From positions 589,855 through 653,854 of the forward strand of contig CAVOIB010000002.1 in NCBI GenBank assembly GCA_963695975.1: a stretch of DNA of 64,000 nucleotides, read 5' to 3'. The position numbers and the translations under genes were made by a program. Below the pieces are notes generated by a model, which saw nothing but the letters and a program-made list of their open reading frames with translations, did not search any database and had not been told where the DNA came from. This DNA is from an uncultured Actinomycetes bacterium (GTDB lineage: Bacteria > Actinomycetota > UBA4738 > HRBIN12). Positions within the stretch are counted from its first letter, which is position 1; each line of letters starts with the position of its first letter. This document shows, one piece after another, positions 14,699-54,072 of the stretch.

Positions 14699-15004
14699 AT
14701 GATCGCGAGGGTCTGGCGGGGGGCGATGAGCGCCGAAGATGCTGGAGCCTACGCCCGCTACATGGGGTCGACAGGCGTCGAGGAGCTGCGGGCGACGCCG
14801 GGCAACGAAGGGGTGTTCATGCTCCGGCGCGTGGATGGCGACCGGGCCGAGTTCATCGTGATGAGCCTCTGGGGTTCGGAAGCGGCTGTCCACGCGTTCG
14901 CCGGTGATGACATCTCTGCGGCGGTGTTCTACCCGGAGGACGACCGGTACCTGATCGAGCGCGAGCTCACGGCCACGCACTACGAGGTGGTGGACCGAGA
15001 CTAG
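14699..15004 (+). CDS. ABM (antibiotic biosynthesis monooxygenase) domain protein
   Basis: ~100 aa with the ABM-like pattern VFMLRRVDGDRAEFIVMSLWGSEAAVHAF. RBS GAGGGGGG. Confidence 0.5.
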   Translation: MIARVWRGAMSAEDAGAYARYMGSTGVEELRATPGNEGVFMLRRVDGDRAEFIVMSLWGSEAAVHAFAGDDISAAVFYPEDDRYLIERELTATHYEVVDRD

Positions 15005-15019
15005 TCTGGGACAGACTAG
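15001..15019. repeat. Palindrome CTAGTCTG-GGA-CAGACTAG (copy 1 of 3)
   Basis: Perfect 8-bp arms that include the TAG stop of the ABM gene. The same motif recurs at 37432 and 54054. Confidence 0.6.
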
Positions 15020-15058
15020 GATCGCTCGCATCTGTGGGTCCGCCCCGGGCCGGCATGC

Positions 15059-16486
15059 TCAGGGGATGAAGTCCGATGGCTGGGTGCCGGGCGGCCACCC
15101 GGGGTAGTCCTCGGGCACGTAATTGAAGGGGTGCCCGTAGGTGTTCGCCCTGGTCGTCGTGGTTGCGGGAGGTCGTGCCGGCTTCGTGAAGTCGAAGATG
15201 TGCTCCATGTTGTGCGTGTCGGCGATCCGAGACGTGAGCGGTGCGAGTCCCCAGTTGTCGGAGATGAACCGTAGCGGCGTGGAGAACTCGCCGAGCTGAT
15301 CGTCGATCAACCCTCGACGCGTGTACGGGGAGATCGTGAGCAGCGGCACGCGGAAGCCGAGGCCGACATCGTCGATGCTGGGTGGCATCACGTGGTCGTA
15401 GAAGCCGCCCCACTCGTCCCACGTGATGAAGATGGCCGTGTGCGCCCACATGTCGCTCACCATGATCGCGTTCACGATGTCGGTGACCCAGTTGTGGGAG
15501 AACGACGTGCTGTAGGGCGGGTGATCCGAGAGCTCGAAGCGAGGGGTGATCCAGGTCACCGCGGGAAGACGGCTCGCTCGCAGGTCCTCGAGGAGCCCGT
15601 CCACGGGCCGGATGTGGGCGTTCCAATACGCCTCGTCGTGGAAGATGCCTTCGATACCGTTGTACGCGTTCCAGAAGTAGCCGGGCTGTCCCCAATCGGC
15701 TGCGTAATAGGCCCAGTCGACCCCGGCCTCGCTGAGCTGTTCTCCCACGGTCTTGAACGTGAAGCACGTGTCGTGCTTGCCGAGGTTGCCGGCCTCATCC
15801 TTGGCGAACACGAAGACCTCGTCGCCGATCGCGTCACAGCCCCAGCTCTTGTAGATCTTGTCGCCCTCCTGACGCGAGGCGATGTTCTCGGGGTTGTCGA
15901 TCACGCCGCCCGACTGGCCGGCGATGAAGTAGTAGTGGTTCGGGTACGACGGCCCGAGCGCCGACGCGTAGAAGTTGTCGGAGAGCGCGTACTCACGGGC
16001 CCAGTGGTAGTAGTTGGGCACCTGCTGCTCGTGGAACTGCGAGTAGCCGTACACGGCGCCCCAGGCGCCGCCTCCGAAGCCGTCGAGGTTCCCACCGTTG
16101 ATGCAATTGTAGGCGGCCGCACGATCGTGCTGGAGATCGCCCGGCAGCCAGTCGGGACACACGATGAGCGGTTGTTCCTTGCCGTTCGCCACGCCGACCG
16201 TGGCGCCGTTCACGCCCGGGAACCGACCGAAGAGGTTGTCGAAGCTCCGGTTCTCGAGCATGAGGTACACGACGCGCTTGATCGGCCATCGGGTCTCGAT
16301 CGCCGGCGTACGGTCGCTCACGTGTGTGATGGTGCGTCCGCCGGTGCAGGAGAAGAGCACCCCCCCAGCGACAGCCATGGCGGATCGCTGCAGGAAGGTT
16401 CGACGGTCGAACGGCAAGGGGTGCGCGCCGAGTCGCGTCTGTTCGCGAGTGGTGAATCGATCGGGCATGCCCATCAGTTCTACCAA
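15059..16486 (-). CDS. Phosphoesterase / phospholipase C (PlcC/AcpA) family protein, Tat-secreted
   Basis: Twin-arginine motif RRTFLQRSAMAVAGG, then the phosphoesterase motifs ENRSFDNLFG and DEWGGFYDHV. Confidence 0.8.
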   Translation of the reverse strand: MVELMGMPDRFTTREQTRLGAHPLPFDRRTFLQRSAMAVAGGVLFSCTGGRTITHVSDRTPAIETRWPIKRVVYLMLENRSFDNLFGRFPGVNGATVGVANGKEQPLIVCPDWLPGDLQHDRAAAYNCINGGNLDGFGGGAWGAVYGYSQFHEQQVPNYYHWAREYALSDNFYASALGPSYPNHYYFIAGQSGGVIDNPENIASRQEGDKIYKSWGCDAIGDEVFVFAKDEAGNLGKHDTCFTFKTVGEQLSEAGVDWAYYAADWGQPGYFWNAYNGIEGIFHDEAYWNAHIRPVDGLLEDLRASRLPAVTWITPRFELSDHPPYSTSFSHNWVTDIVNAIMVSDMWAHTAIFITWDEWGGFYDHVMPPSIDDVGLGFRVPLLTISPYTRRGLIDDQLGEFSTPLRFISDNWGLAPLTSRIADTHNMEHIFDFTKPARPPATTTTRANTYGHPFNYVPEDYPGWPPGTQPSDFIP

Positions 16487-16552
16487 GGAAGTTCGCTATC
16501 GGTATCCTCGGTGGGTCCCCACGTCCCGGTTGGAGAGCCATCTGCGTAGGTT

Positions 16553-17204
16553 CATGCCGTCGTTGATCACCTGGTCGTTCGTCGTTGCCGCTCTCGCGGC
16601 GTGCGACGGAAGCACTCCTACCGGGCCGTCGTCCACCCCGGCTCCAACGCCGATCGCGTCGGGTTCCCCCGTGGCATCTCCGACCCCTCCCGCGACCCCA
16701 GCCGTTCCCCCGCCCACCAACGGTCCCACGACGAATACCTGTGTGAATGGGTGGACCATGCCTGAGGCCGGCACCCCGCTGTTCACGGATCCGTTGGGGA
16801 TCGTGCGGCGGACCACAGGCGTGAAGGGCCCGCTCGTCGTGGTGAACATGCGGTATTTCGTCGGCCCCGAATCGCCGAGCACGGATCAGGGCTACCTGCT
16901 CGAGGTCGATCGCTGGTACATCCAGCTCTACGCGCAGAACGACATCGCGTTCCAGGGGCGCTTCCTGGTGGAAGGTCGGCGGTTCGGCCGTGGGGTCTCC
17001 GCCGTCGCCCCCTACGACTCCAGCGGGTTCGGCTCTCCCGACTGGGTCGGGTTCCAGTACGAGAGCGCCGATCCGGTTCGAAGGGCATATCCGGGGCTGC
17101 CGGGGCGATGGGACGGCCAGCCGTACGATTTCGTGCTGGGAGGTGCGGGGCTCAAGATTCCTGGACTGCCTGACGAAGTTAGAGGGTGCCTGGATGGCAC
17201 ATAG
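16553..17204 (+). CDS. Lipoprotein, hypothetical
   Basis: Signal peptide with lipobox VVAALAAC, then a Pro/Thr-rich linker. The longer track ORF from 16164 overlaps the phosphoesterase gene and was trimmed. Confidence 0.5.
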
Positions 17205-17577
17205 GCCGATGGGTATCTATCAGAGCTCGGGCCGGACCCGGGACCCGCTTGGCGGTGTCGCGATGCTGATCGGCATCGCGGGTGCGTTCGCGTCCGTCAT
17301 CCTGTGGGCGTATCAGCTCGATCCGCACGGGACCCTCGTTCGTTCGGTCGCGTCGAAGCTCGGACCGGGGTTGGCGTTCGGCGACGGCCTCGTGCTCACG
17401 GCTGCGATCTGCGGCGGCGTTGCGGTCATCATGGCGATCGCCGGTTCCCTTGGCGGCAGCATGCGGGGTTCGTCGGCGATCGCGATCGTCTTCGGCGTGA
17501 TCGCGCTCAGCTACCCGGTGCTCGCCTGGTTCCAGGTGATCTCACGGCCGCTGTTGCACCGCTTCTCGACCGGCTGA
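17194..17577 (+). CDS. Small integral membrane protein, hypothetical
   Basis: Three or four hydrophobic helices. Alternative start at 17209. Confidence 0.4.
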   Translation: MAHRPMGIYQSSGRTRDPLGGVAMLIGIAGAFASVILWAYQLDPHGTLVRSVASKLGPGLAFGDGLVLTAAICGGVAVIMAIAGSLGGSMRGSSAIAIVFGVIALSYPVLAWFQVISRPLLHRFSTG

Positions 17578-17579
17578 TC

Positions 17580-18761
17580 TCAGAGCTCCGACGGCCAGGC
17601 CGTGTACGCTCCGGGCCCGCGCTTGACGAGCTCGTTGCCGATCACCAGTCGCTGGATCTCGGATGTTCCCTCCCAGATCCGATCGACCCGCAGCTCTCGC
17701 CAGAGGCGCTCCACCGGCTGCTCCCGCATGTACCCGCGGCCCCCGTGGATCTGCAACGCCTTGTCGATCACGCGCCCCGCCGTCTCGCTGCACACGAGCT
17801 TCACGGCCGATGCCTGCGCGTGCAGCTCCTTGCGGGTGATCCCCCCGTGCGCCGCCATCCAGCAGACCCGATAGAGCATCGACGTCGCGGCCATGATCTC
17901 GGCGGCCATGTCGGCCAACATGAACTCGATCGCCTGGAATCGAACGATCGCCTCGCCGAACTGCCGGCGTTCCTGGGCGAACGCGAGCGAGAGCTCGAGC
18001 GCACGCGCCGACGCACCCATCGTCCGAGCACCGATCATGAGCCGTTCCTCGACGAACCAGTCCTTGGTGAGCTCATATCCCTCGCCCACCTCGCCCAGGA
18101 CCGCGTCCGCGTCGACTCGCACATCTTCGAACGCGAAGATCGGATGCTCGAACACGAACGTGTGCGTGTACTTCGGCGTGCGAACCAGCCGCACGCCGGG
18201 CAGGGCCTTGTCGACGAGGAAGATCGTGGGCTTCGCGACGTCGCCGTCGACGAGGGCGTGGACCAAGAAGAAGTCGGCGACATCGCCCGACGTCACGTGC
18301 CATTTCTCTCCGTCGAGGATCCAGCCGTCGCCGTCGCGGTGAGCCGACGTCTTAACCATCGAGGGATCCGATCCTGCGAACTCCTCGGTGATCGCATATG
18401 CGTCGCGCCGTTCGCCGCGGGCGGCAGGGCGGAGGTAGCGCTCCTTCTGTGCCTCGGTGCCGCGCGCGAGCGGGATCGAGGGCCGCCAAGGGATGTCCCA
18501 GAGCGCACCGGTCGCCCGGCCCCACTGCTCCTCCACCAGCAGCTGTTGGAAGGTGTCGAGGCCCTGACCGCCGTCCGCCGGCGCGTGGTTGATCGCGTTG
18601 AAGCCCGAATCGAGCACGGCCCGTTTGGCGGTCGTGGCACTTTGGGTCGTGAGTCCGTCGTTCGCCTCGCACTCGTCTTCGAGCGGGATCAGCACGTCGT
18701 CGGTGAACGCGCGCGCGCGCTCCTGAAGAGAGCGGTCCCGCGGGCCCAGTCGGAAGTCCAT
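17580..18761 (-). CDS. Acyl-CoA dehydrogenase
   Basis: ACAD signatures (IHGGRGYMREQPVERLWRELRVDRIWEGTSEIQR). Start placed at MDFRLG to leave a divergent promoter gap with the amidase gene. Confidence 0.85.
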   Translation of the reverse strand: MDFRLGPRDRSLQERARAFTDDVLIPLEDECEANDGLTTQSATTAKRAVLDSGFNAINHAPADGGQGLDTFQQLLVEEQWGRATGALWDIPWRPSIPLARGTEAQKERYLRPAARGERRDAYAITEEFAGSDPSMVKTSAHRDGDGWILDGEKWHVTSGDVADFFLVHALVDGDVAKPTIFLVDKALPGVRLVRTPKYTHTFVFEHPIFAFEDVRVDADAVLGEVGEGYELTKDWFVEERLMIGARTMGASARALELSLAFAQERRQFGEAIVRFQAIEFMLADMAAEIMAATSMLYRVCWMAAHGGITRKELHAQASAVKLVCSETAGRVIDKALQIHGGRGYMREQPVERLWRELRVDRIWEGTSEIQRLVIGNELVKRGPGAYTAWPSEL

Positions 18762-18859
18762 CGTCCGTTCGAGTCTAGGGCGGAGCCGCCCGAGCGCGTG
18801 AGCCGTCATCGCTCGTTCGATAGGCTCGTCGGCGATATGGGGATGAGGGATGTGCACGG

Positions 18860-20251
18860 GTGACCCTCGACGAGCTCTCGGCCGCGGTCCGCGAGCGGCG
18901 GATCTCGGCGGTCGAACTGGTCACGATGTCCCTCGAGCGGATCGAACGGCTGGATCCGCCGCTCAACGCGGTGATCCTCGTCTGCGCGGATCGCGCACTC
19001 GAGGAAGCGCGCACGCTCGACGCGCAGGTGCTGGGGGGCGAGTTCGAGGGCCCGCTCGCCGGTCTTCCGCTCCTGGTGAAGGACATGGAGGACGTCGCGG
19101 GTCTGCCGTCGACGTACGGCTCGGGCATCTTCGCCGAGGCGCCGCCGGCGACTCGCGACGCCGTGGTTCCGAAGCGGCTGCGCGGCGCGGGCGCGATCGT
19201 GGTCGGCAAGACGAATCAGCCGGAGTTCGCGTTCGCGGGGTTCACGGGGAACACCGTCTACGGGACGACCGTGAACCCGTGGGGGACGGAGTGGTCGCCG
19301 GGTGGCTCCAGCGGGGGCTCGGGGGCCGCCGTCGCCGCCGGCATGGCGCCCATCGCTACCGCCACCGACGGCGGCGGCTCGATCCGGATCCCGGCCTCGT
19401 TCTGCGGGCTGGCGGGGCTGAAGCCGACGAACGGCGTGATCGGGCGCGATCCCATCCCCGAATGGATCGATCTCTCGACCTGCGGTCCATTCGCCACATC
19501 GATCGCGGACGTCCGACGTCTCCTCTCGATCGAAGCCGGGCCGGTTCCCGGCGATCCCTCGGCGCTGCCGTTCCCGCTCCCAACCGGCGAAGGCGGCCTG
19601 CCATCCCATGTGTTCGCCGTTCCGAGGTTCGAGGACCTCGGACCGCTGCCCGAGGGGGTCGCTCGGCCGTTCGCGGAAGCGTCGGCGAGCCTCGAGCGTG
19701 ATCTCGGGCTGGAGGTGGAGCGGTTGGAGTCAGGCTCGATCTTCTCGAGCGAGGACGTCGGCGGCGTCTGGCTTACCACATGTGCGTTCGAGCATCTGCA
19801 CGCGCTTGGACCCGACTTCGTCCGCGAGCACATGGAACGCTTCTCGCCGGATTTCGGCTCCACCATGCGCCACGCGTTGACGATCAGCCCTGAGGCCTAC
19901 ATGGCGGCGCGGCGCCGGCGGTTCGAGCTGGTGCGCGACCTCGACGTGCTGCTCGGCGGATCCGGCGTGCTGGTCATGCCGACGATGGCGGTAGTCGGCC
20001 TGTTCCCCGATGGCCGAGCACCGGGCGACCCACCCTCGGATGCAGCGATCTACAACACGGACCCTCAGAACCTCACGGGACACCCGGCGCTGTCCGTTCC
20101 CGCAGGTGTCTGCGAGAACGGGATCCCGTTCGGGCTGCAGATCACGGGACCGCGGTTCCGCGACGACCTGGTGTTGAACCTCGGCGAAGCGTGGGAGGCC
20201 GCGAACCCGTGGCCGCTCGCCGCGCCCGGCTACGAGCCGTTCGCGATCTAG
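18860..20251 (+). CDS. Amidase (amidase-signature family)
   Basis: AS-family Ser-cisSer-Lys motif GGSSGGSGAAVAAG...GGSIRIPAS, 463 aa. GTG start. Confidence 0.85.
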   Translation: MTLDELSAAVRERRISAVELVTMSLERIERLDPPLNAVILVCADRALEEARTLDAQVLGGEFEGPLAGLPLLVKDMEDVAGLPSTYGSGIFAEAPPATRDAVVPKRLRGAGAIVVGKTNQPEFAFAGFTGNTVYGTTVNPWGTEWSPGGSSGGSGAAVAAGMAPIATATDGGGSIRIPASFCGLAGLKPTNGVIGRDPIPEWIDLSTCGPFATSIADVRRLLSIEAGPVPGDPSALPFPLPTGEGGLPSHVFAVPRFEDLGPLPEGVARPFAEASASLERDLGLEVERLESGSIFSSEDVGGVWLTTCAFEHLHALGPDFVREHMERFSPDFGSTMRHALTISPEAYMAARRRRFELVRDLDVLLGGSGVLVMPTMAVVGLFPDGRAPGDPPSDAAIYNTDPQNLTGHPALSVPAGVCENGIPFGLQITGPRFRDDLVLNLGEAWEAANPWPLAAPGYEPFAI

Positions 20252-21040
20252 TCACGCCGTCAGATCACGCCGTTCGAACGCGAGGAGCGCCAGCCCGAGC
20301 AGGACCGCGGCGAGGACCACGAGGACCAACGCATGGACGGGATCGAGACCGTTCTGGAGCGGGTCGTTGCCGATGTAGTAGTAGAACGGGGAGAGCTTCT
20401 GCATCGAACGGATCGCGTCCACCGACGGCGCGAGCACGTTGAACAGGTACGTGACGACGCCGACCGACGCCACCACGGCGATCGCCAGGCCGCGCTTCCC
20501 TTGCCAGGCGCCCATCGCGAGCGCGCCCGCGCCGAAGCCGATCGCGAGCAAGACGGCAGAGAGCACGGCCTCACCGAGGTTCGCGAGGCTGATGCGCAGG
20601 CCGAAGAGGGGTCCGAACAGGGCGACCGCGAGCCACATGACGACACCCACGCCGGCCGTCGCCACGACCATCGCCCAGAACTTCTCCAACAAGACGCGAC
20701 GCCGTGGGATCGGATTCGCCAGCAGCAGGTCCAGGGTTCCGCGCTCCTCCTCACCGGCGATCCCTCGAGCGCCGGCGCCGATCGCGAGGATCATGAGGAG
20801 CAGGGGACCCATGATGCTGAAGATCTCGCTCTGGAGATAACAGGTGGGCGAGGAGAAGTCGATGCAACCGATCATGTTCCGCACCGTGTCGGGCAAGCTG
20901 TCGAAGTACTGGTTCAGACTCGCGTTCCCTTTGATGCTCGGGTAGAAGGACGCGTAGAGCAGCACGAGCGCGGCCATGCCGAGTGCCCAGCCGGTCAACG
21001 CGCGCCGTTGATCCGCCAGCGTCTTCCGGAAGACGATCAC
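20252..21040 (-). CDS. ABC-2 type transporter permease
   Basis: Six TM segments. GTG start overlaps the ATPase stop (GTGA). The track ORF was over-extended into the ATPase gene. Confidence 0.75.
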   Translation of the reverse strand: MIVFRKTLADQRRALTGWALGMAALVLLYASFYPSIKGNASLNQYFDSLPDTVRNMIGCIDFSSPTCYLQSEIFSIMGPLLLMILAIGAGARGIAGEEERGTLDLLLANPIPRRRVLLEKFWAMVVATAGVGVVMWLAVALFGPLFGLRISLANLGEAVLSAVLLAIGFGAGALAMGAWQGKRGLAIAVVASVGVVTYLFNVLAPSVDAIRSMQKLSPFYYYIGNDPLQNGLDPVHALVLVVLAAVLLGLALLAFERRDLTA

Positions 21041-22787: not shown

Positions 22788-22850
22788 GGTGGGATGAAAG
22801 CGCAATTCGTCGGATGGCGCCACCGGACGAACGACCCGGCGATCACGGGC

Positions 22851-24269: not shown

Positions 24270-24384
24270 CGGTCGGAGGATAGTCGAGCGGTTCATCCGC
24301 GAGGCCGGTCGCGACCCCGGCTCAGCGTTCGTGTCCGTTGATACGGTGTGAGGCCTCACCCCGAGCGTCCAGGAGGCAGGGCAG

Positions 24385-26061: not shown

Positions 26062-26068
26062 ACCCTCG

Positions 26069-27307: not shown

Positions 27308-27554
27308 TCGGTCCGACCCGGCGCCTGCGCGTTCATGTGGAGATGGAGCTGTAGCCGGACAGGTCCGGAAGCTCCTTGGGAGTCTTGCGTATCTGCTCCC
27401 CTCCGGATGGGTTGCGTCCGAGTCTGACACCGTCCATGCGAGCACGCTCACGGCTTGACCGGACGGCGTATTGCATTCTCGATCGGAACGGGACAAACTC
27501 GCTCCCGTTCGGTCAGCGACCGGCCACGTGCAGGCACGATTCAAGGGGGGGTGC

Positions 27555-29198: not shown

Positions 29199-29210
29199 GC
29201 GTCGGGTTCG

Positions 29211-29235
29211 GGGGCGGCCGCGAAGCGGCCGCCCC
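29211..29235 (+). terminator. Intrinsic terminator-like hairpin GGGGCGGCCG-cgaag-CGGCCGCCCC
   Basis: Perfect 10-bp GC stem with a 5-nt loop, 12 nt after the permease stop. No U-tract, as is usual in high-GC actinobacterial terminators. Confidence 0.6.
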
Positions 29236-29265
29236 GCGACCACGCGTCCGGTTACCCTTCCTGCG

Positions 29266-29634: not shown

Positions 29635-29664
29635 GAACCCGCGGTCCGTCGGGATACTTGAGGG

Positions 29665-33026: not shown

Positions 33027-33109
33027 GCGGCGGACGCTAGCCGCGAAGTTCGTTCCCGGTCAAGGATGAACGAACCTGATCGACCCCCCGCAAGAGCGGC
33101 GCGGGCTTG

Positions 33110-34679: not shown

Positions 34680-34718
34680 GCGCGGGTGGGCCCATGTGGG
34701 CCTGCGACCGCGCCGATA

Positions 34719-34745: not shown

Positions 34746-34796
34746 ACCCCGGTGCCACATGAACGGACCGGGAACGGTCCCAGGAGAGGAGAGCAC

Positions 34797-35121: not shown

Positions 35122-36866
35122 AGGTAACCGGCGCCCAGGCGCTGTTCAGATCCCTCGAGGGCGAGGGTGTCGACATCGTGTTCGGCATCCCCGGAGGGGC
35201 GATCCTGCCCGCCTACGACCCGCTCATCGACTCGAGCGTGCGGCACGTGCTCTGCCGCCACGAGCAGGGAGCCGGACACGCCGCTGAGGGCTACGCCTGG
35301 GCCACGGGCAAGGTCGGTGTGGCCATGGCCACCTCGGGCCCGGGAGGCTGCAACCTGGTGACCGCGCTCGCCGACGCGAAGATGGACTCGGTGCCGATGG
35401 TCGCCATCACCGGCCAGGTCCCCACGCCGGTCGTCGGGAACGACGCGTTCCAAGAGGCCGACATCACCGGCATCACGATGCCGATCACCAAGCACAACAT
35501 CCTGGTCACCGACCCTGGCGACATCGCCGAGGCGATCCGCGAGGCCTTCCATATCGCGCGCACCGGTCGTCCCGGCCCGGTCCTCGTCGACCTCCCGAAG
35601 GACGTGCTCGTCAACGAGACGAACTGGAAGTGGCCCGAGAGCGTGAGCCTCCCCGGCTACAAGCCCACGACCAAGGGCAACCTGCGCCAGGTGGCCGAGG
35701 CGGCGAAGCTGATCCTCAAGGCCAAGCGCCCGGTGCTCTACGTGGGCGGCGGCGTGATCAAAGCGGAGGCCACGAAGGAGTTGATGACGCTCGCCACCCT
35801 CGGACATCTGCCGGTCGTCACGACGCTGATGGCACGCGGCGCGTTCCCAGACTCGAACGAGCTTTGCCTCGGCATGCCGGGGATGCACGGCAACTACACC
35901 GCGGTCACGGCCATGCAGAAGGCCGACCTGCTGGTAGCGCTCGGCGCGCGGTTCGATGATCGGGTCACCGGCAAGCTGGACGCGTTCGCGCCGGATGCGA
36001 CCGTGATCCACGTGGACATCGACCCGGCGGAGATCGGGAAGAACCGCGTGGCCGAGGTCCCGATCGTGGGTGACTGCAAGGACGTGATCGCGAAGCTCAC
36101 GGCAGAGCTCGCGAAGCGTCAGGACGAGGGGGGTGGCGTGCCGGACCGGAAGGCCTGGCTCGGGCAGCTCGCCGAGTGGAGGACGACGTACCCGTACCGG
36201 TACGACCAGCAGCCGGACGGTCCGCTGTTGCCGCAGTTCTGCATCGAGCGCCTCTACGAGGCGGCCGGCAGCGACACGATCGTCGTCTCCGGCGTGGGTC
36301 AGCACCAGATGTGGGCCTCGCAGTTCTGGCACTTCGAGCAGCCGCGACACTGGATCAACTCGGGCGGCTTGGGCACGATGGGCTTCGCCGTGCCCGCGGC
36401 GCTCGGCGCAGCGGCCGGTCAGCCGAAGAAGCGCGTGATCGCGATCGACGGCGACGGGTGCTTCCAGATGACGGCGCAGGAGCTCGCCACCTCGACCACC
36501 GAGAACATCCCGTTCGTCACGGCGATCATCAACAACGCCTACCTGGGGATGGTGCGGCAGTGGCAGGAGCTGTTCTACAACGAGCGCTACAGCCAGGTCT
36601 ACCTCTCTTACGACACGCCCGACTACGTGAAGCTGGCCGAGGCGTATGGCTGCGTCGGCCTGCGGGCCGAGCATCCTGACGAGGTCGACGCCGTGATCGA
36701 GAAGGCGCTGTCGGTCTCCGACCGCAGCGTGGTGATCGACTTCCGGGTTGACTCGAACGAGATGTGCTTCCCGATGGTGCCGGCAGGCGCGTCGAACGAC
36801 GACATCATCGTCGGCCCGGAGGGCCTGAAGCCGGCCAAGGACCCGGCGGAGGCACCCATCGCATGA
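35118..36866 (+). CDS. ilvB: Acetolactate synthase large subunit
   Basis: ThDP-enzyme signatures (GIPGGAILP; [16 protein letters not shown]...IDGDG), 582 aa. Confidence 0.9.
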
Positions 36867-37423
36867 GCCTCCACACGCTGTCCGTCCTCGTCGAAGACCG
36901 GCCGGGAGTCCTGACGCGGGTGGCGGGGTTGTTCGCGGCGCGTGGGTTCAACATCGACTCGCTCGCCGTGGGGGCGACTGAGAACCCGGGCATGTCGCGC
37001 ATGACGATCGTCGTGAACGTGGACAAGAAGCCCTTGGAGCAGGTCACCAAGCAGCTCAACAAGTTGATCCACGTGATCAAGATCCTGGAGCATGAGCCCT
37101 CCGAGACGGTTGAGCGCGAGCTGATGCTGGTCAAGGTCCGTGCGGAGGGCGAGACTCGGGCGCGGGTCCTGGAGTTCTGTCAGGTGTTCAGGGTTCGTGT
37201 CTCGGATGCGACGCACCAGACGCTCACGATCGAGGCGACGGGTTCTCCCGACAAGCTCTCCGCGCTGCTCGACCTCTTGGACGACTTCGGGATCGTTGAG
37301 TTAGCGCGCACGGGGCGCATCGCGCTCACGCGCGGCGACCGCGGGATCCGCGAGCGCGCGCTGAAGTCCACCCGGGCGGCGGGTGCCGAGGATCAACCGG
37401 ATTGGGACGGCGGCGGGGTGTGA
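36863..37423 (+). CDS. ilvN: Acetolactate synthase small (regulatory) subunit
   Basis: ACT domain [33 protein letters not shown]. Start overlaps the ilvB stop (ATGA). Confidence 0.85.
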
Positions 37424-37431
37424 AGCGGGTT

Positions 37432-37450
37432 CTAGTCTGAGATGGACTAG
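37432..37450. repeat. Palindrome CTAGTCTG-AGA-TGGACTAG (copy 2 of 3)
   Basis: In the 64-nt ilvN-ilvC intergenic spacer, 9 nt after the ilvN stop. Confidence 0.55.
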
Positions 37451-37487
37451 CACGACGGGCGAACGACCCAGGAGGGACGACGGAGCG

Positions 37488-38504
37488 ATGGCAACGATCT
37501 ACTACGAGAAGGACACCGATCCCAGCGCGTTGAAGGATCAGAAGATCGCGATCCTCGGGTTCGGCAGTCAGGGGCACGCCCACGCGCTGAACCTGCGCGA
37601 CTCGGGCCACGACGTGCGCGTCGGGCTCCGCGCGGGCTCGTCGTCCCGCCCGAAGACCGAGGAGACGGGGCTGCGTGTCCTGGATACCGCCGACGCCGTC
37701 CGCGAGGCCGACGTCATCATGGTCGTGGTCCCCGATACCTCGCAGGCGAAGGTCTACCGTGAGGACATCGAGCCGAACCTGGAGCCCGGCAACATGCTGA
37801 TGTTCGCGCACGGGTTCAACATCCGGTTCGAGACGATCGCGCCGCCCGAGGGCATCGACGTCACCATGATCGCCCCGAAGGGTCCCGGCCACTTGGTGCG
37901 GCGGACCTACGAGCAGGGGATCGGAACGCCGGCGTTGATCGCCGTCCACCAGGATGCGACGGGCAACGCAAAGGCGCGCGCGCTCGCGTACGCGCACGGG
38001 ATCGGCGCCGCCCGTGCCGGCGTCCTCGAGACCACGTTCAAAGAGGAGACCGAGACCGACCTGTTCGGTGAGCAAGCCGTGCTCTGTGGCGGAGCGTCCG
38101 CGCTCGTCCAAGCGGGGTTCGAGACGCTCGTCGCGGCCGGGTACCAGCCGGAGATCGCCTATTTCGAATGCCTGCACGAGCTGAAGTTGATCGTCGACCT
38201 GATCTACGAGGGCGGCCTTTCGTGGATGCGCTACTCGATCTCCGATACGGCTGAATACGGTGACTACACGCGTGGGCCGCGCGTGGTGAGCGACGAGACG
38301 CGCGCCGAGATGCGCCGGATCCTGGACGAGATCCAGGACGGCCGGTTCGCGAAGGAATGGATCGGCGAGGCCGAGGGCGGGTTCGACACCTTCCTCCGAC
38401 TTAGGAGCGAGGCGCGGACGTCCCAGCTCGAGGATGTGGGACGGGGACTGCGCCAGATGATGCCCTGGTTGGAGTCCGAGACGAAGGTGGTTCCCGATGA
38501 CTGA
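37488..38504 (+). CDS. ilvC: Ketol-acid reductoisomerase
   Basis: NADPH-binding [15 protein letters not shown], class I KARI, 338 aa. RBS GGAGGGA. Confidence 0.9.
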
Positions 38505-42682: not shown

Positions 42683-42699
42683 GTTTCGCGACTCGCCGC

Positions 42700-43923: not shown

Positions 43924-43972
43924 GATCGCTCGATGGTACGAGGTGGATCGACGGTCGCCCGGGAGCCGCCCG

Positions 43973-47161: not shown

Positions 47162-47215
47162 GGAGGTTGTATCGTCCCGCTCCCGGCCGACCCTTAGTAC
47201 GCAGGGAGCCGCGCG

Positions 47216-48514
47216 TTAGACGTCGGCCGTATGGGGGACGTGGGCGAGGTCCTCGGACCGTTCGACCGAACGCATCCCGGGCAGGAACAAGAACGAGAAC
47301 GTCACGATGGCCCCCAGGATCCCCGCACCGACGAGCGTGGCTCGCGCGCCGATGGCACTGGCCACGGGGCCGGTGAGCGCGTATGAGACGGGCAGGAGGC
47401 CGATCGACACGAACCAGTCGAGGCTCGATACCCGGCCAAGGAGCTGACGCGGGACCAGGCGCTGCTTCGTCGTCGCCCACACGATCGTGCCCGCCGTCTC
47501 GAGCGCGTTGAACAGGAAGCACGCGAGCATGGCCTGCCACGGCAGGTGCGCCAATCCGTAGCCGGCGACCGCGAGCGTGGACAGTGTCCAGGCGACGTAC
47601 ATGAACGTGATGAACTTCCGAGGTGCTCCGCGGTGCCCCATGATCAAGGCTGCGCCGATCGCGCCGACCCCGCCCATCGCCAGGATGATCCCGAGCGTGA
47701 GTGGGTTGCCTCCCCAGTCGGTCTTGACCAACAACGGCAACAGGACCTCCTGGGGACCGATGAACAAGAGATAGGCGAACGTCGCCGCGAGAAGGGTGCC
47801 CCACAGCCACACACGCGCGCGCACGAAGCGGAACCCTTCACGCACGTCTTCGAATGCGGTCCCGCTGCCGTCGAGGGGTGCATCGAGCGGGTGCGGACTC
47901 ATCATCAGCAGCGCGACGATCGAGGCACCGAACGTCGCGGCATCCATCAGGAACGCGCCACCGACGCTCCACCCCACGAGGGCCCCGCCGAGGGCGGGGC
48001 CGAGCAGGCGCCAGGCGGCCGGCCTGACGAACTGGTCGACCGAGTTCGCCTGGGTGAGCAGGTCGGATGCGACCAGATCGGGGACGATCGCGTCGAACGC
48101 CGGACCGAAGAACGCGGTCCCGCCTCCGTAGATCGCGGCGAGGACCATGAGGTGCCAGAGCTCGATGTGCCCCGTCAGCGAGAGCCATCCCATCGCGGCG
48201 ACCGACAGCCCGCGAACCAGGTCGGCGAGCAGCAGCACCCGGCGTCGGTCGAAGCGATCGCTCACGACGCCACCAGCCAGCAGGAAGATCACGTGGGGGA
48301 TGGTCATCGCCAGACCGACGAGCGAAAGGGCGGTCGGCGTGTCCGAGAGCTCGTACACCTGCCAGGCGAGGGCCACCAGGAAGATGCCGTCGCCGATCAG
48401 CGAGATGGTCATGCCCGACCAGAGCAGTCGGAAGTCGCGGTGTCGAAGCGGTTCGAGGATGACCGGGAGTCGCCGGCGCGACCTGCTCGGCTTCCCCTCT
48501 GGATCGGACCTCAT
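47216..48514 (-). CDS. MFS transporter
   Basis: Twelve TM segments. Start trimmed to MRSDPEG because the 490-aa track ORF overlaps the histidine-kinase gene. Confidence 0.75.
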   Translation of the reverse strand: MRSDPEGKPSRSRRRLPVILEPLRHRDFRLLWSGMTISLIGDGIFLVALAWQVYELSDTPTALSLVGLAMTIPHVIFLLAGGVVSDRFDRRRVLLLADLVRGLSVAAMGWLSLTGHIELWHLMVLAAIYGGGTAFFGPAFDAIVPDLVASDLLTQANSVDQFVRPAAWRLLGPALGGALVGWSVGGAFLMDAATFGASIVALLMMSPHPLDAPLDGSGTAFEDVREGFRFVRARVWLWGTLLAATFAYLLFIGPQEVLLPLLVKTDWGGNPLTLGIILAMGGVGAIGAALIMGHRGAPRKFITFMYVAWTLSTLAVAGYGLAHLPWQAMLACFLFNALETAGTIVWATTKQRLVPRQLLGRVSSLDWFVSIGLLPVSYALTGPVASAIGARATLVGAGILGAIVTFSFLFLPGMRSVERSEDLAHVPHTADV

Positions 48515-48581
48515 CGACCCCATCGACCTCTCTGTGTCGGCCGGCGTCCAGACCGGGCCCTTTCCGACTTCCCCCGAACGA

Positions 48582-50741
48582 CTACGCGGGTCCGAAGGTG
48601 TCGACGGCGGCCGGGACGAGTCCACGTTGCGGTTCGCCGTCGTCCCCTGTCCCCGCGTCGCCCTCTCCCGCGGAGGGGAGATAGACACGGAACGAGGCCC
48701 CGCCGCCTTCCCGCTCCTCGACCCACGCCCGCCCGCCGTGGAGCTCGGCGAACCGAGTCACGAGCGAGAGGCCGATGCCGACGCCCGGGTTGTGACGGAC
48801 GACCTCGTTCCCCTGGCGGAACGGTTCGAAGATCGAGTTGCGGATGTCTTCAGGGACGCCAGGCCCAGCGTCCTCCACCAGGATGAGCACGCCGCTCGCG
48901 TCCTCGCTCGCACCGACCCAGATCGGCGTACCGGGGGGTGTGTAGCGGATCGCGTTCGCGACGAGGTTCTCGACGATCCGTTCGACCTGTGCCGCATCGA
49001 CGTTCGCGGGAACGGGATCGGTCACGGTGAGCTCGATCGGATGGCTATCTGAGGCCGTTTCCTGGAGGACCCGAGCGAGGATCTGTGTCATGTCCACGTG
49101 GGCGCGGTTGGGTGCCACGATGCCGCGGGACATGCGGTCGAGGTCGAGCAGGTTCGTCAGCAGGCGGTGGAGCTTGCGGGCGTTGGCTGCGATACGCCCG
49201 ACCAGGTCGTGCTCGTCCTCCCGGGAGATCTGCTCGCGGCCGAGGCTCCCCTCCAGCGTCAGGGCGCAGCCGAGGATGCTGGTGAGCGGCGTCCGAAGGT
49301 CGTGAGACACGGCCTGCAGGAACGAGTTCTGCATCTCGTGGAGCGCTCGAAGACGCGTGGCGGCCTCCTTCTCGGCGTCGAGCGCCTTGACCAGCTGGGC
49401 TTCGGCCTGCTTCTGCTCAGTGACGTCGTACATCACGCCCTGCAGGCTGACCGGCCGTCCGGTCTCGTCCTCGAGCGCCTCTGCCTCCTCGTGGATCCAG
49501 ATCACCTGGCCGTCCTTGCCGACGATCCGATACTCACAGGCCATCCGGGGCTCGCCGTTCAGCAGCCGGAGTTCGGCGTCCAACGCGCGCTCGCGATCCT
49601 CGGGGAGGATGCGCTCACGCCACAGTTCCGCCTGTCCTGTCCATTCATCCTGACTGAAGCCGAGGATCGATTCGATCTTCGGGCTGATGTAGCGCCACGC
49701 CGCATCCTTGCCGAACTCGGCGATGTAGACGACGGCCGGAAGGCCTTCGACGAGCGACCGGTACTTCGCCTCGGCTTCGCGCAGCTGCCGCTCCGCCCTG
49801 CGGTACTTCCCGATGTCGACCATCAGGCCGTTCAGCCGTACCAAGACCAGGACGAACAGCACGGCGGAGGCGCCGGCGAGGACGGCGACGTCGACGTTGT
49901 CGCCTCGGAGTGCCTGGATCACGAGGACCGTCGGCGCGATCAGTGACGCCCCGGCCAGCAACGCGAGGCGCCGGCGAGGGTGCGCCAGGTCGCCCTCGGG
50001 CGTGGGTTCGTCGAGGTTCGCCATCGAGGGGTGCAGGGCCGCTGCCCCCCACAACAGGTAGAAGAAGCCCCAGCCCAACTCGAGGAGCCCGGTCGAGTTG
50101 TCGTACGACCCGTGCAGCAGGATCCACGTGTAGATCGTGTCGGTGGTGAAGAGCACCGTGATCGAGGCGATCATCAGGTAGAACGCGGGGGGCCGGCGTC
50201 CGCGGCCGACCGCGAGGCGTACCGCTACGCCGAACAACAGCATGTCCATGATGGGGTAGGCCATCGAGGTCAGCTTCTGGATCAGCGGGATCGATTGGTC
50301 GTGCGCGTAGGGGGCCAGCAGGAAGACCCAAGAGAGCGTCCCGACCCCGATGGCGATGATCAGCGAGTCGATGAGACTGGCGCGGTCGCGGCCGGGGCTG
50401 CGCCGACGAACCAGCAGCAACACTCCGGCGATCAGCGGGGGATAGACGCTCAGGTAGAGCAGGTCGCCGATCGACGGGAACGGCGGCGCGGTCCCGAAGA
50501 AGCGCTCGTAGTTGTACGTGATCACATCGCCGGCGACGAAGAGCGTCTGCCCGATCGCGAAGAGGTACCAGGGCAGACGCTGGCGAGGTTCGTGCAGCCT
50601 CGCCGCGATGACGATGGCGATCGGTGCTGAGAGTCCGATCAGGTTGAACAGTGGGCCGACGCGGATCGGGTGGACGAACACGAACGCGGTAAGCACCGCG
50701 CCGCCGATGGTCAGGTAGAGGGCCCACGCCCGAGCTTTCAT
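48582..50741 (-). CDS. Membrane sensor, PAS and histidine kinase (orphan)
   Basis: Same N-terminal polytopic domain as the 43973..47161 protein. HisKA H-box SHDLRTPL; HATPase N, G1 and G2 boxes. No response regulator is adjacent. Confidence 0.85.
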   Translation of the reverse strand: MKARAWALYLTIGGAVLTAFVFVHPIRVGPLFNLIGLSAPIAIVIAARLHEPRQRLPWYLFAIGQTLFVAGDVITYNYERFFGTAPPFPSIGDLLYLSVYPPLIAGVLLLVRRRSPGRDRASLIDSLIIAIGVGTLSWVFLLAPYAHDQSIPLIQKLTSMAYPIMDMLLFGVAVRLAVGRGRRPPAFYLMIASITVLFTTDTIYTWILLHGSYDNSTGLLELGWGFFYLLWGAAALHPSMANLDEPTPEGDLAHPRRRLALLAGASLIAPTVLVIQALRGDNVDVAVLAGASAVLFVLVLVRLNGLMVDIGKYRRAERQLREAEAKYRSLVEGLPAVVYIAEFGKDAAWRYISPKIESILGFSQDEWTGQAELWRERILPEDRERALDAELRLLNGEPRMACEYRIVGKDGQVIWIHEEAEALEDETGRPVSLQGVMYDVTEQKQAEAQLVKALDAEKEAATRLRALHEMQNSFLQAVSHDLRTPLTSILGCALTLEGSLGREQISREDEHDLVGRIAANARKLHRLLTNLLDLDRMSRGIVAPNRAHVDMTQILARVLQETASDSHPIELTVTDPVPANVDAAQVERIVENLVANAIRYTPPGTPIWVGASEDASGVLILVEDAGPGVPEDIRNSIFEPFRQGNEVVRHNPGVGIGLSLVTRFAELHGGRAWVEEREGGGASFRVYLPSAGEGDAGTGDDGEPQRGLVPAAVDTFGPA

Positions 50742-50807
50742 CGCACTCTCGATATCGGGATGCTGGGACGGAGACCTTAGGGTGTAGCAGGCTGCGATCG
50801 AGCGCGA

Positions 50808-52109
50808 TCAGGGGGTGGTGCCGATGGTCTGGCGGAGCTGGAACCGATCGCGGAGCGTTCCCAGGACCGAGATCAGATGGTCGATCTCCTCGGGGGTGTT
50901 GGCCGCGGTCACCTGGATCCGGAACCCGACCTCGTCCTTCGGGACGAGCGGATACGCCGCCATCGTCACGTAGATCCCTTGGTCGTAGAGGTATCGACCG
51001 ACCTCGTCGATCTCGTCGTGGTCGGCGAGCGACACCTCGATGATCGGGAACCCGCTCTCGTTCGGCGTGCGGATCCCCAAGCGATCGAGCGCGTCCAGCA
51101 CGCGGTGGGTCATCTCCCACATCGTGAACCGCGCGAGGTCGCCGCGCCTGCGGTTCACCTCGAGGCCGGCGATCGTCGTGGCGAGCGAGGCGACGGGCGA
51201 TGGCCCCGAGTAGAGGTACGGCGGCGCGAGTACCTTCAGCGCGTCCTTCAACCTCGTCGGGAGCGCCATGAAGGCCAGGAGCGAGGAGTACGACTTCGAG
51301 AATCCGGCCACCATCACGACGTGTTCATAGCCGACGCCTTGGTGACGGAAGACGCTGTTCCCCTTGGTGCCGTAGTCGCAAAGCTCGTCCGGCGAGCGCT
51401 CGCCGATGACGCCGAACCCATGGGCATCGTCCAGGTAGAGCAGCGCGTCGTGCGCGCAGGCGATGCGGGCGAACTCCCCGACGTCGGGCGCGTTGCCGGT
51501 CATCGAGTTGACCCCGTCCATGGCGATCACGCGGGGCAGGCCTGGGTCGCTCGCGGTGATGAGCTCCTCCAGGTGCGCCGCGTCGTTGTGTCGGAATCGG
51601 ACGACCTGTGCTCCGTGACCTGCGGCGACCATGGCGCCGTCGTAGATCGTCTTGTGGGCGCGCCCGTCCAGGAATACCGTGCCGTCGCCGACCAGCACGG
51701 GGATCGTCGACATGTGGATGTGGGTGATCGTCGGGAGCAGGAGCACGTCCTCGCAGACGAGGAGGTCGGTCATCTCCTCCTCGATCTCCTCGTAGAGCCG
51801 TGGGCTGCCGAGGAGTCGCGACCAGCTGGGGTGGGTTCCCCACTTCGCCAGATAGTCGGGGACCGCGGCGATGATCTCCTCGTCCAGGTCGAACCCCAGG
51901 TAGTTGCACGAGGCGAAGTCGGTGAGCCAATGATCGCCGATCCTGATCTTCCGGCCGACCTGTTCGTCGATCACGGCATCCACCATCGGGTGCTCGTGCT
52001 TCAGACGGGTGAGATCGGAGGTCGTGGCGACCCAGCGGTCAAGCCAGCCGTCACCCTGCCGCCTGCGCGGCTTGCCGTTCGGGGACGGCTCCACCTGGGC
52101 ATCCGACAT
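50808..52109 (-). CDS. Alpha-oxoamine synthase family PLP enzyme (BioF/serine-palmitoyltransferase-like)
   Basis: Fold-type I with PLP lysine context VMVAGFSKSY and DDAHGFGVIG. Start taken as MSDAQ; the ORF begins at 52220. Confidence 0.75.
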   Translation of the reverse strand: MSDAQVEPSPNGKPRRRQGDGWLDRWVATTSDLTRLKHEHPMVDAVIDEQVGRKIRIGDHWLTDFASCNYLGFDLDEEIIAAVPDYLAKWGTHPSWSRLLGSPRLYEEIEEEMTDLLVCEDVLLLPTITHIHMSTIPVLVGDGTVFLDGRAHKTIYDGAMVAAGHGAQVVRFRHNDAAHLEELITASDPGLPRVIAMDGVNSMTGNAPDVGEFARIACAHDALLYLDDAHGFGVIGERSPDELCDYGTKGNSVFRHQGVGYEHVVMVAGFSKSYSSLLAFMALPTRLKDALKVLAPPYLYSGPSPVASLATTIAGLEVNRRRGDLARFTMWEMTHRVLDALDRLGIRTPNESGFPIIEVSLADHDEIDEVGRYLYDQGIYVTMAAYPLVPKDEVGFRIQVTAANTPEEIDHLISVLGTLRDRFQLRQTIGTTP

Positions 52110-52327
52110 CCGGCGTCGGATCTGCCCTCGGGGTCTGCCGTTCGACGCTCCGTTATCGGTCGACGGGAGTTCCATGGAATACCCACATCGGCGCATCCCC
52201 ACGCCGACTTGAAGGGGCACGGGGGGTGACTCCGCCCCCGTCCATCTGGGGGAGTCCGTCTGGTGGTGCGCCCGGCCTCGCCGTAGACTCGGCCCTTCCG
52301 CGAGGCCGAAGACGATGGGGGAGCGCG

Positions 52328-53686
52328 GTGCGCGCGATCGACCGGTCGAGGATCCACGACCTGATGGAGCGTGAGCGGCAGACGTTCCGTGAACGGCATC
52401 CTCGATGCGGTGCGCTGGCGGAGGAGGCCAAGGCCTCGCTCCTCTACGGCGTGCCGATGAACTGGATGGTCCGCTGGCCGGGCGACTGGCCGGTGTTCGT
52501 CGATCGGGCGGAGGGCGCGCGCTTCACGGACGTCGACGGGAACACCTACGTCGATCTCTGCCTCGGTGACACCGGCGGCATGGCCGGACACGCGCCGAAG
52601 GCCGCGGTCGAGGCGATCGCCGAGCAGGCCGCCCGTGGGATCACGCTGATGCTCCCGACCGAGGACGCGGCGTGGGTGGGCTCGGAGATGGCTCGGCGCT
52701 TCGGTCTCCCGTACTGGCAATTCTGCCTGACGGCGACCGACGCGAACCGCTTCGTGATCCGTTGGGCGCGGGAGGTCACCGGCCGTCCGAAGATCGTCGT
52801 GCATAACTGGAACTACCACGGCTCGGTCGACGAGACGTTCGCGCGGTTGGACGACGGCGGAAACGTCCGGGCCCGCGAGGGCTTGGTTGGGCCGCCGGTC
52901 CCGTTGGACGTGACGACCAAGGTGGTTGAGATCAACGACCTCGATGGTCTGGAGGCCGTCTTGAGGGCGGGCGACGTGGCATGTTGCCTCTTCGAGCCCG
53001 CGCTCACGAACATCGGGATCGTCCTGCCCGATCCGGGCTACCACGACGGCGTCCGCGACCTGTGCTCGAGGAACGGGACGCTCCTCGTGATCGACGAGAC
53101 CCACACGATCTGCGCCGGCCCTGGCGGATGCACGAAAGCGTGGGGTCTCCGCCCGGACATCGTGACGATCGGTAAGACGCTCGGCGCGGGGATCCCGAGC
53201 GCCGCCTACGGCATGACCGAAGACGTGGCGCGCCGGATCGTGGAGCACACCGACTTCCAGCACATCGACGTCGGCGGCACGGGCGGGACGCTCGCCGGGA
53301 ACGCCCTATCGTTCGCCGCGATGCGGGCGACGCTCGGTCAGGTCCTCACCGACGAGGCGTTCGTGCAGATGATCGCGCTCGGCGAACGGTTCGAGCGCGG
53401 TGTGGCGGATGTCATCGCGTCGCGCGAGCTGCCGTGGCATGTGACGCGTCTTGGGTGCCGAGTGGAGTACCTGTTCCGGCCGGATGCGGCCAGGAGCGGC
53501 GCTCAAGCGGCGGCCGGGCAAGACGAAGAGCTCGATCCCCTGATCCATCTCTACCTGTTGAACCGAGGGATCTTGATCACCCCGTTCCACAACATGGCGC
53601 TGATGTCCCCGGCGACGACCGCCCAGGATGTGGACGCGCACACCGAGACGTACGCGCAAGCTGTCGACGAGCTGGTGGGAGGTTGA
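52328..53686 (+). CDS. Class-III (GSA/BioA-like) aminotransferase
   Basis: PLP lysine TIGKTLGAG, VIDETHT and HNWNYHGS motifs. Start uncertain: GTG at 52328 or ATG at 52364. Confidence 0.75.
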   Translation: MRAIDRSRIHDLMERERQTFRERHPRCGALAEEAKASLLYGVPMNWMVRWPGDWPVFVDRAEGARFTDVDGNTYVDLCLGDTGGMAGHAPKAAVEAIAEQAARGITLMLPTEDAAWVGSEMARRFGLPYWQFCLTATDANRFVIRWAREVTGRPKIVVHNWNYHGSVDETFARLDDGGNVRAREGLVGPPVPLDVTTKVVEINDLDGLEAVLRAGDVACCLFEPALTNIGIVLPDPGYHDGVRDLCSRNGTLLVIDETHTICAGPGGCTKAWGLRPDIVTIGKTLGAGIPSAAYGMTEDVARRIVEHTDFQHIDVGGTGGTLAGNALSFAAMRATLGQVLTDEAFVQMIALGERFERGVADVIASRELPWHVTRLGCRVEYLFRPDAARSGAQAAAGQDEELDPLIHLYLLNRGILITPFHNMALMSPATTAQDVDAHTETYAQAVDELVGG

Positions 53687-53688
53687 CC

Positions 53689-54057
53689 GTGACCGACGCG
53701 AGGATCGCGTACGTGCTGCTGGATTCCACCGACCCTGCCGCACTCGTCCCGTTCTGGACCGAGCTGCTTGGAGTGGGGGTCGCGGCGACCGTGGACGAGG
53801 GGGCCTTCGTGGTGTTGGATGCCGCGGCCGACGGCCCCCCCGCGCTCGCGTTCCAGCGCGTCCCTGAGTCGAAGTCGGGGAAGAATCGCATGCACCTCGA
53901 CCTGGTCGTGGACGACCTGGAAGCTGCGACCCAGCGGATCACCGAGATGGGCGGCGTCTGGCTCGACGGCGAGACGCGCGAGATCGGCGGCTACCGCTGG
54001 CGGTGCATGGCCGACCCCGAGGGTAACGAGTTCGACATCGTTCCGGACGACAACTAG
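53689..54057 (+). CDS. VOC/glyoxalase-family protein
   Basis: 122 aa. Metal-ligand pattern MHLDLVVDD and C-terminal PEGNEFDIV. GTG start 2 nt after the aminotransferase stop. Confidence 0.65.
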   Translation: MTDARIAYVLLDSTDPAALVPFWTELLGVGVAATVDEGAFVVLDAAADGPPALAFQRVPESKSGKNRMHLDLVVDDLEAATQRITEMGGVWLDGETREIGGYRWRCMADPEGNEFDIVPDDN

Positions 54058-54072
54058 TCTGGGATAGACTAG
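54054..54072. repeat. Palindrome CTAGTCT-GGGAT-AGACTAG (copy 3 of 3)
   Basis: Contains the TAG stop of the VOC gene on the + strand and the TAG stop of serC on the - strand. Confidence 0.6.

Follow-up and report, generated by a model that had tools for sequence, protein, structure and literature searches.

A 64,000-nucleotide stretch of DNA from an uncultured Actinomycetes bacterium (contig CAVOIB010000002.1, positions 589,855 to 653,854; hereafter the window) contains three copies of a 19-bp palindrome that begins and ends with the tetramer CTAG, and these three palindromes are confirmed as members of a conserved, lineage-specific 19-bp family. They had been picked out by a model from the sequence alone (the original prediction), and retrieval of the sequence bears out the coordinates listed in Table 1. 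When up to three mismatches are allowed, a search of the window returns copies 1 to 3 alone, compared with an expectation of 0.09 ± 0.32, and none of 100 shuffled sequences reaches three copies. The premise that CTAG is normally counter-selected holds in the window, which contains 29 occurrences where 65 ± 8 are expected. The 19-mers are also richer in AT than their surroundings, as had been claimed (47–53% GC), but the background measures 66–69% GC and not the 70% originally quoted.

The genes on either side are largely as first described. Copy 1 had been placed at the 3′ end of an ABM gene with a phosphoesterase gene downstream; a plus-strand open reading frame (ORF) does stop within the motif and the phosphoesterase gene does follow, but the ABM identity is not matched by Pfam, in which this 116-aa ORF (14654–15004) has no match. 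The ORF overlaps the end of a 700-aa acyl-CoA synthetase-like gene; in the closest relative, L151 (the prefix L denotes loci fetched for comparison), a deletion has removed the whole ORF together with the motif, and in L153 the ORF is fragmented. The upper coordinate of the phosphoesterase gene, 16486, is that of the longest ORF, the homologues being about 470 aa long. Gene calls and Pfam agree with the placement of copy 2 in the ilvN-ilvC spacer, within an operon that runs ilvB-ilvN-ilvC-leuA-leuB, and of the VOC and serC stop codons in the two arms of copy 3.

Table 1. Coordinates of the palindromes, adjoining genes and other features of the window
Feature	Coordinates	Strand	Description
Copy 1	15001..15019	.	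CTAGTCTGGGACAGACTAG = CTAGTCTG-GGA-CAGACTAG, perfect 8-bp arms; 116-aa ORF (+) on one side, phosphoesterase gene (-) on the other
Copy 2	37432..37450	.	CTAGTCTGAGATGGACTAG = CTAGTCTG-AGA-TGGACTAG; ilvN-ilvC intercistronic spacer of the ilvBNC-leuA-leuB operon
Copy 3	54054..54072	.	CTAGTCTGGGATAGACTAG = CTAGTCTG-GGA-TAGACTAG; entire junction of convergent VOC and serC genes, containing both stop codons
TAG stop of 116-aa ORF (14654-15004)	15002..15004	+	inside left CTAG of copy 1
Phosphoesterase-family gene (phospholipase C / acid phosphatase type)	15059..16486	-	stop 39 nt from copy 1; Pfam
ilvN (acetolactate synthase small subunit)	36863..37423	+	stop 8 nt upstream of copy 2; Pfam
ilvC (ketol-acid reductoisomerase)	37488..38504	+	ATG 37 nt downstream of copy 2, behind AGGAGGG ribosome-binding site; Pfam
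VOC/glyoxalase-family gene	53683..54057	+	TAG stop 54055-54057 in left CTAG of copy 3; Pfam
serC (phosphoserine aminotransferase)	54069..55172	-	stop (+ strand CTA, 54069-54071) in right CTAG of copy 3; Pfam
Single CTAG	8202..8205		overlapping stops of the convergent genes in the next two rows
Arginase-family gene	7351..8205	+	
PfkB kinase gene	8202..9077	-	
Palindrome	2259..2276		7-4-7, ATTGAAC-GACC-GTTCAAT; 10 nt upstream of acyl-CoA dehydrogenase gene
Acyl-CoA dehydrogenase gene	2286..3476		
GC-rich hairpin	29211..29235		GGGGCGGCCGC-GAA-GCGGCCGCCCC, 11-bp stem; 13 nt past gene end, no T run

One further palindrome in the window, that at 2259–2276, has another sequence altogether; from its letters it looks operator-like, resembling the actinobacterial LexA box (TCGAAC-N4-GTTCGA).

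Distribution, position and conservation of the family

The genome-wide pattern search that had been suggested as a check was run on one genome per species for 185,579 species, using the strict consensus of the original prediction (CTAGTCTGRGAYRGACTAG), and it recovers a dispersed family. The scan yields 62 loci, 60 of them in 31 uncultured Actinomycetota metagenome-assembled genomes (MAGs) from soil and groundwater that are labelled 'Actinomycetota / Actinomycetes / bacterium'. Each MAG has between one and seven strict copies, dispersed over its contigs and always one per 8-kb locus, and the commonest form of the 19-mer is CTAGTCTGAGACAGACTAG. The strict pattern undercounts copies, perhaps 2–3-fold, and biases the centre and inner pairs among the loci derived from the scan, although within these loci a search requiring the outer arms only adds no further copies; statements about the consensus are accordingly drawn from orthologue sets fetched without using the motif. 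Chance or mis-binning would seem to explain the two remaining loci, one on a short Roseiarcus contig and the other on a low-GC Peptococcaceae contig. With equal base frequencies about 35 matches would be expected by chance across the 185,579 genomes, and about 0.01 in the 31 MAGs. At one of the loci (L034:2381-2425) long runs of G and then of C adjoin the motif, probably an assembly artefact.

The family is restricted to this clade, and the idea that the palindromes arise by chance or from base composition, which the original prediction had already rejected and for which their small number in the window is the only argument, is refuted by the failure of the shuffled sequences to reach three copies, by the presence of 60 of the 62 genome matches in a single lineage and by the retention of the palindrome between orthologues. 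No viral contig contains the motif, which rules out a phage origin. Searches for a tRNA, tmRNA or other Rfam RNA found nothing: the window has no Rfam match at gathering thresholds, and permissive settings add nothing beyond meaningless matches to miRNAs (E 2.7 and 8.2).

The positions of the copies are strongly biased. Genes in the fetched loci were called with a simple caller based on third-position GC (GC3), whose output for the ilv region agreed with the database gene calls. Among 58 classified sites, 30 (52%) lie between convergent genes, 27 between tandem genes and just one (2%) between divergent genes, whereas the junctions in the same loci are 18% convergent, 66% tandem and 16% divergent (chi-square p ~4e-11, a test in which orthologous sites are not independent; the positional bias persists once these are collapsed). 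The enrichment at gene 3′ ends and convergent junctions that had been predicted from three copies therefore extends to the family, and so does the supply of a stop codon on both strands: of the 92 abutting genes, 41 end in the TAG of a terminal CTAG and another four in an internal TGA, and at five sites, window copy 3 among them, both neighbours stop within the motif. A stop-codon 'ratchet', in which genes drift onto a stop that cannot be mutated, may account for much of this use (45 of 92 ends), and for that reason we draw no stronger claim from it. The sole intragenic copy (L047:2261-2279) lies in hisC of a his operon, where it encodes LVRLRL and includes two rare CTA codons; next to M. tuberculosis HisC, the protein has no length change at the motif.

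The neighbouring genes have no common functional or regulon theme and are unrelated housekeeping genes, including greA/CDP-alcohol phosphatidyltransferase, rsmI/metG, ddl/parB, mutM/pncA, ilvN/ilvC, serC, sufU, GNATs and a histidine kinase, most of these names being our own reading of the sequences and those in the window being confirmed by Pfam. The presence of ilv, ser, his and metG genes raises the question of an amino-acid regulon, which is ruled out by the position of the sites at 3′ ends and by the unrelated character of the other neighbours.

Orthologous junctions fetched independently of the motif give the consensus CTAGTCT-N5-RGACTAG, in which the arms are invariant, the length is fixed, and the centre and flanks are free. 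The consensus first proposed, CTAGTCTGrGAyrGACTAG, is thus correct in its outer arms, but its central rGA and inner yr vary among orthologues. CTAG-N11-CTAG occurs 77 times in the DNA examined and neighbouring spacings are essentially absent, as are other spacings of the half-site arrangement CTAGTC-N7-GACTAG; no copies with one or two mismatches are found in about 0.5 Mb of related DNA, sites being either intact or decayed. At the serC/VOC junction the arms are kept in the window and L144 (identical, TA-TCC-CA) and in L146 (TG-TAT-CA); in L145 a single arm change (CTGGTC) is accompanied by a move of the serC stop to an internal TGA. Arms are likewise kept at the ilvN-ilvC junction (window TG-AGA-TG, L017 TG-AGA-CA, L147 TG-ATA-CG, L149 TT-ATC-CA), the spacers of L148 and L150 having no motif, and at the phosphoesterase 3′ end (window TG-TCC-CA, L153 TG-ATA-CA, L015 TG-AGA-CA; the region is deleted in L151). 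We see no compensatory arm changes at these orthologous window junctions. The asymmetric centre is oriented differently among orthologous sites, and function would therefore seem to be symmetric and independent of direction.

The site following greA provides the deepest comparison. The 19-mer there is identical in eight MAGs whose GreA proteins are only 68–96% identical, while the spacer from the greA stop codon to the motif ranges from -4 to +4 nt; fetching greA orthologues from metagenomes, again without using the motif, adds nine loci that have it, one with the centre AGG. Here every one of the 17 intact copies is of the TGG variant of the motif. The gene that follows, encoding a CDP-alcohol phosphatidyltransferase, has a GTG start codon that uses the last G of the palindrome (e.g. 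L058:3587-3608), so that its ribosome-binding region lies inside the 3′ arm. Among close greA relatives the copy is disrupted in L068 (arm changed to CTGATC), L069 (internal deletion), L124 and L109, and L070 has a single CTAG where its relatives have the CTAG-flanked unit, which by its sequence has the look of a precise empty site; the motif is absent from more distant greA relatives. A different element is seen in the palindrome-less greA relatives L080-L098, a conserved, non-palindromic CTAG-N10-CTAG sequence (CTAGACGCTSCTGGCTAG) about 28 nt upstream of greA (e.g. L081:1973-1990).

Beyond the 19-mer the sequences at different loci are unrelated, conservation stopping within 1–3 bp, and the de-duplicated set of 39 sites has only a weak symmetric flank preference (caa/motif/ttg). 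This rules out a miniature inverted-repeat transposable element (MITE) or a larger repeat, and the MITE-like character suggested at first does not stand, there being no element of about 50–500 bp with terminal inverted repeats, a conserved interior and a target-site duplication. Purifying selection acts on the arm sequence, and these comparisons of orthologous sequence indicate that the palindrome is a functional, vertically inherited cis element tied to gene ends.

Hairpin, operator, repeat or recombination site

As expected of a palindrome that can form a short hairpin, the core folds into a predicted hairpin of 7–8 bp, albeit a weak one. Convergent sites have extra pairing: complementarity of the flanks past the core is 0.77 bp in the de-duplicated set compared with 0.44 ± 0.12 bp for shuffled pairings (p=0.008), and at convergent sites it is 1.17 compared with 0.57 ± 0.17 bp (p=0.002), the values for tandem sites being 0.48 and 0.52; the direct comparison of convergent with tandem sites is not significant (p=0.10). 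At the ddl/parB junction the orthologues L025 and L037 each lengthen the stem by 6 bp with different sequences, which is real covariation outside the core. The hairpin listed in Table 1 at 29211–29235 is of a conventional GC-rich kind, suggesting that the genome also uses ordinary strong end hairpins.

The reading that we rank first, and to which we give a probability of roughly 40%, is that the palindrome is a bidirectional gene-end hairpin resembling the Tuberculosis Rho-independent terminator (TRIT) and repetitive extragenic palindromic (REP) sequences, with an invariant stem read by a putative lineage-specific factor. Because the element is palindromic, RNA polymerase arriving from either side would transcribe the same 7–8-bp hairpin onto the 3′ end of the message, often together with the stop codon, and the hairpin could then fix or protect transcript ends in both directions, through attenuation of read-through or a block to 3′ exonucleases. 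At convergent junctions the flanking pairs may lengthen it into a stronger barrier, and within operons (ilvN-ilvC, greA and the next gene) it would be a partial barrier that may set the ratio of upstream to downstream product. The invariance of the stem, together with the freedom of the loop, is what leads us to infer a lineage-specific protein that reads the stem sequence; action in RNA, ending or stabilising transcripts with the help of such a dedicated factor, is likewise inferred. The site for a terminator factor offered by the original prediction, or one for a boundary factor, is a plausible candidate.

A number of observations weigh against the gene-end hairpin. The stem is AT-rich and weak for a genome of 67% GC, copy 2 folds no better than its shuffles (z -0.3), copy 3 on the plus strand is outcompeted by another fold, and copies 1–3 have neither a U-tract nor any terminator-like match. 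An invariant stem with a free loop and no compensatory pairs is the opposite of what is usual for a functional RNA hairpin. The window copies had suggested a wobble signal, with G-U pairs on the plus strand, but among tandem loci the occurrence of G-U pairs as opposed to A-C mismatches at the inner pairs does not track the transcribed strand (four loci consistent, three not), and this candidate was rejected. The ilvN-ilvC and post-greA sites cannot be efficient terminators, ilvC starting 37 nt further on and the gene after greA starting at the last base of the motif. Finally, Term-seq in M. tuberculosis finds an overlap of just 2–4% between mapped 3′ ends and predicted terminators including TRIT, such that the terminator role of TRIT is itself doubtful. 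Given the lack of a U-tract, the weak stem and the copies within operons, the element would at most be an attenuator or a 3′-end protector and not a canonical terminator.

Ranked second, and possible though doubtful, is an operator, in which a lineage-specific dimeric protein binds two invariant half-sites (CTAGTCT) at fixed spacing in duplex DNA. On this view the protein would have a part in chromosome organisation or in the conditional control of read-through and would not regulate promoters, its sites persisting only where promoters and coding sequence are left undisturbed, namely at gene ends. Invariant half-sites, fixed spacing (the 77 occurrences of CTAG-N11-CTAG) and a free centre are the classic signature of a protein-DNA interaction, and the weak symmetric flank preference, the lack of compensatory changes, the all-or-none state of the sites, the low number of copies per genome and the positions kept between orthologues all fit. 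The intragenic hisC copy, with its rare CTA codons, suggests selection on the DNA sequence itself, and since genuine parS sites in the same genomes also lie just beyond gene 3′ ends, a 3′-end position does not exclude a role at the DNA level. On the other side, a single site out of the 58 has divergent genes on its two sides and no function unites the neighbouring genes, which together make the site for a classical global regulator that had been proposed unlikely; the sequence-variable extra pairing at convergent sites is unexpected for a protein that binds duplex DNA, and we have identified no candidate protein. Neither can the bound protein act as a roadblock terminator: polymerase halts more than 10 bp short of a bound protein, so that wherever the stop codon is inside the site (41 of the 92 gene ends) the transcripts would lack it. 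Inverted half-sites at fixed spacing are indeed what a regulon operator has, but the expected position at promoters or 5′ ends of related genes is not seen. A promoter was considered and rejected as well. The TAGTCT of the arms fits the actinobacterial -10 hexamer TANNNT on both strands, but the hexamers face each other, the fixed inverted arrangement would go unexplained, divergent sites are too few, and there is no sigma-70-like promoter match at copies 1–3.

A bolder form of the boundary idea, which we judge unlikely, is that an undescribed lineage-specific protein marks gene ends, making each palindrome a sequence-specific, factor-dependent and bidirectional boundary between bacterial transcription units, with a logic like that of mTERF or Reb1/TTF-I in eukaryotic systems; TRIT would be a second instance, and the site would double as the stop codon of both neighbours. 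Somewhat less probable still is that the palindrome is selfish and REP-like and does nothing for its host, a transposase (for example of the RAYT/HUH kind that acts on DNA hairpins; RAYT, REP-associated tyrosine transposase) spreading or maintaining it and selection tolerating it only at gene ends, a setting in which REPs too are found, along with operon spacers. There are nonetheless hints of a repeat origin. Many unrelated loci have their inner bases and an AGA-like centre in common even though the centre is not required, suggesting descent from one master copy; L070 resembles a precise empty site; and the bare CTAG that the convergent stops at 8202–8205 have in common has the appearance expected of an unoccupied one. 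A neutral passenger, however, would decay, and the arms stay invariant at orthologous greA sites over the whole range of GreA divergence while the spacer changes; the same invariance rules out a neutral footprint of IS630-type insertion or excision at TA, for which L070 and 8202–8205 would otherwise serve as empty sites. The copies are moreover few and always single, two of them flank a gene at 0 of 62 loci, CTAG is part of the paired stem where REPs have an unpaired GTAG head, and there are neither viral copies nor any compensatory or quasi-species-like variation. We regard as very improbable a site-specific recombinase core or the target of an integrative element, in which the inverted arms of 7 bp would enclose a crossover region of 5–7 bp. 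The architecture is like that of the core sites of tyrosine recombinases, the end of a gene is a typical place for attB, and the differing centres would prevent recombination between copies; yet synteny is stable in all orthologous comparisons, the gene lists contain no integrase or mobile DNA beside the sites examined, viral contigs have no motif, and a host would have no reason to conserve many attB-like sites. The gene-end hairpin remains the reading that we prefer.

Comparison with known systems

Like an intrinsic terminator, the palindrome is a gene-end hairpin that can be used from both strands; it differs in having no U-tract, a weak AT-rich stem whose sequence is conserved without compensating drift, and some copies within operons. 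The stoperators of cluster A mycobacteriophages, repressor sites at which elongation is halted in the short spaces between genes, share with the present family the use of many copies of one protein-binding sequence at gene boundaries and not at promoters, binding being putative here. Stoperators are, however, asymmetric, orientation-dependent and found in phages, whereas this palindrome is symmetric, chromosomal and absent from viral contigs.

Like parS, it is a short, near-perfect palindrome of conserved sequence that in these genomes is present in few copies and outside genes. A parS site is 16 bp long with no spacer and has another sequence (TGTTTCACGTGAAACA), and identity with parS is ruled out by this difference and by the separate presence of canonical parS in the lineage, ParB thus already having its own site. 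Allowing 0–2 mismatches, canonical parS is found at L051:3175-3190, just past the 3′ end of a gene at the ddl/parB locus, and at L002:2247, L016:183, L032:7195 and L046:4339, some 75–160 nt downstream of metG, which places the rsmI/metG palindrome in a parS-bearing and probably origin-proximal region.

REPs are imperfect palindromes of 20–40 nt, present in tens to hundreds of copies, often clustered or in doublets, with an unpaired GTAG or GTGG head, and they flank a RAYT gene; those of E. coli act as stabilisers of mRNA 3′ ends. The likeness to REPs and REPINs lies in short extragenic palindromes at 3′ ends, convergent junctions and operon spacers, and in this loose sense the REP-like label first given to the palindrome fits. 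It fits no further: the copies here are few, single and 19 bp long, their CTAG is paired and no GTAG or GTGG head is seen, tens to hundreds of copies or clusters are not observed, no gene at the 62 loci is flanked by two copies, and the positions are far more deeply conserved.

In literature searches for similar elements already described in Actinobacteria, TRIT was the only one returned. TRIT is a bidirectional palindrome, conserved in both sequence and structure, that lies on stop codons and is thought to need an unknown factor; Mycobacterium is the only genus from which it has been reported, a genome there having 147 copies (Gardner et al. 2011; PMC3152330). It has been linked to defined mRNA 3′ ends in a subset of M. 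tuberculosis genes. The present family is similarly actinobacterial, confined to one lineage, palindromic and conserved in sequence and structure, and it occupies a narrow interval on or over stop codons and not downstream of them, as is evident from the TAG and internal TGA stops described above (41 and 4 of 92). It differs in its one to seven strict copies per genome and in belonging to another, uncultured lineage; we set it apart from TRIT by the description of the latter as confined to Mycobacterium, the TRIT consensus sequence itself not having been compared.

Taken as a whole, these comparisons suggest that the family is not TRIT as defined, a REP/RAYT element, an intrinsic terminator, a MITE, parS or an Rfam family, and that it would work most like TRIT and REP. 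Its small size, the depth to which it is conserved at orthologous positions and its service as a shared stop codon make it stand out. For the annotation of MAGs the motif marks gene ends and explains many TAG stops, and the compact sequence lends itself to reporter, binding and phylogenetic-profiling work. High-GC Actinobacteria have few canonical terminators, and TRIT, which has been without a mechanism since 2011, is the one conserved end motif known so far. The palindrome described here is a second independent family, simpler at 19 bp and more deeply conserved, with an invariant stem placed on stop codons and serving both strands, and its existence alongside TRIT suggests a general strategy and not a mycobacterial curiosity.

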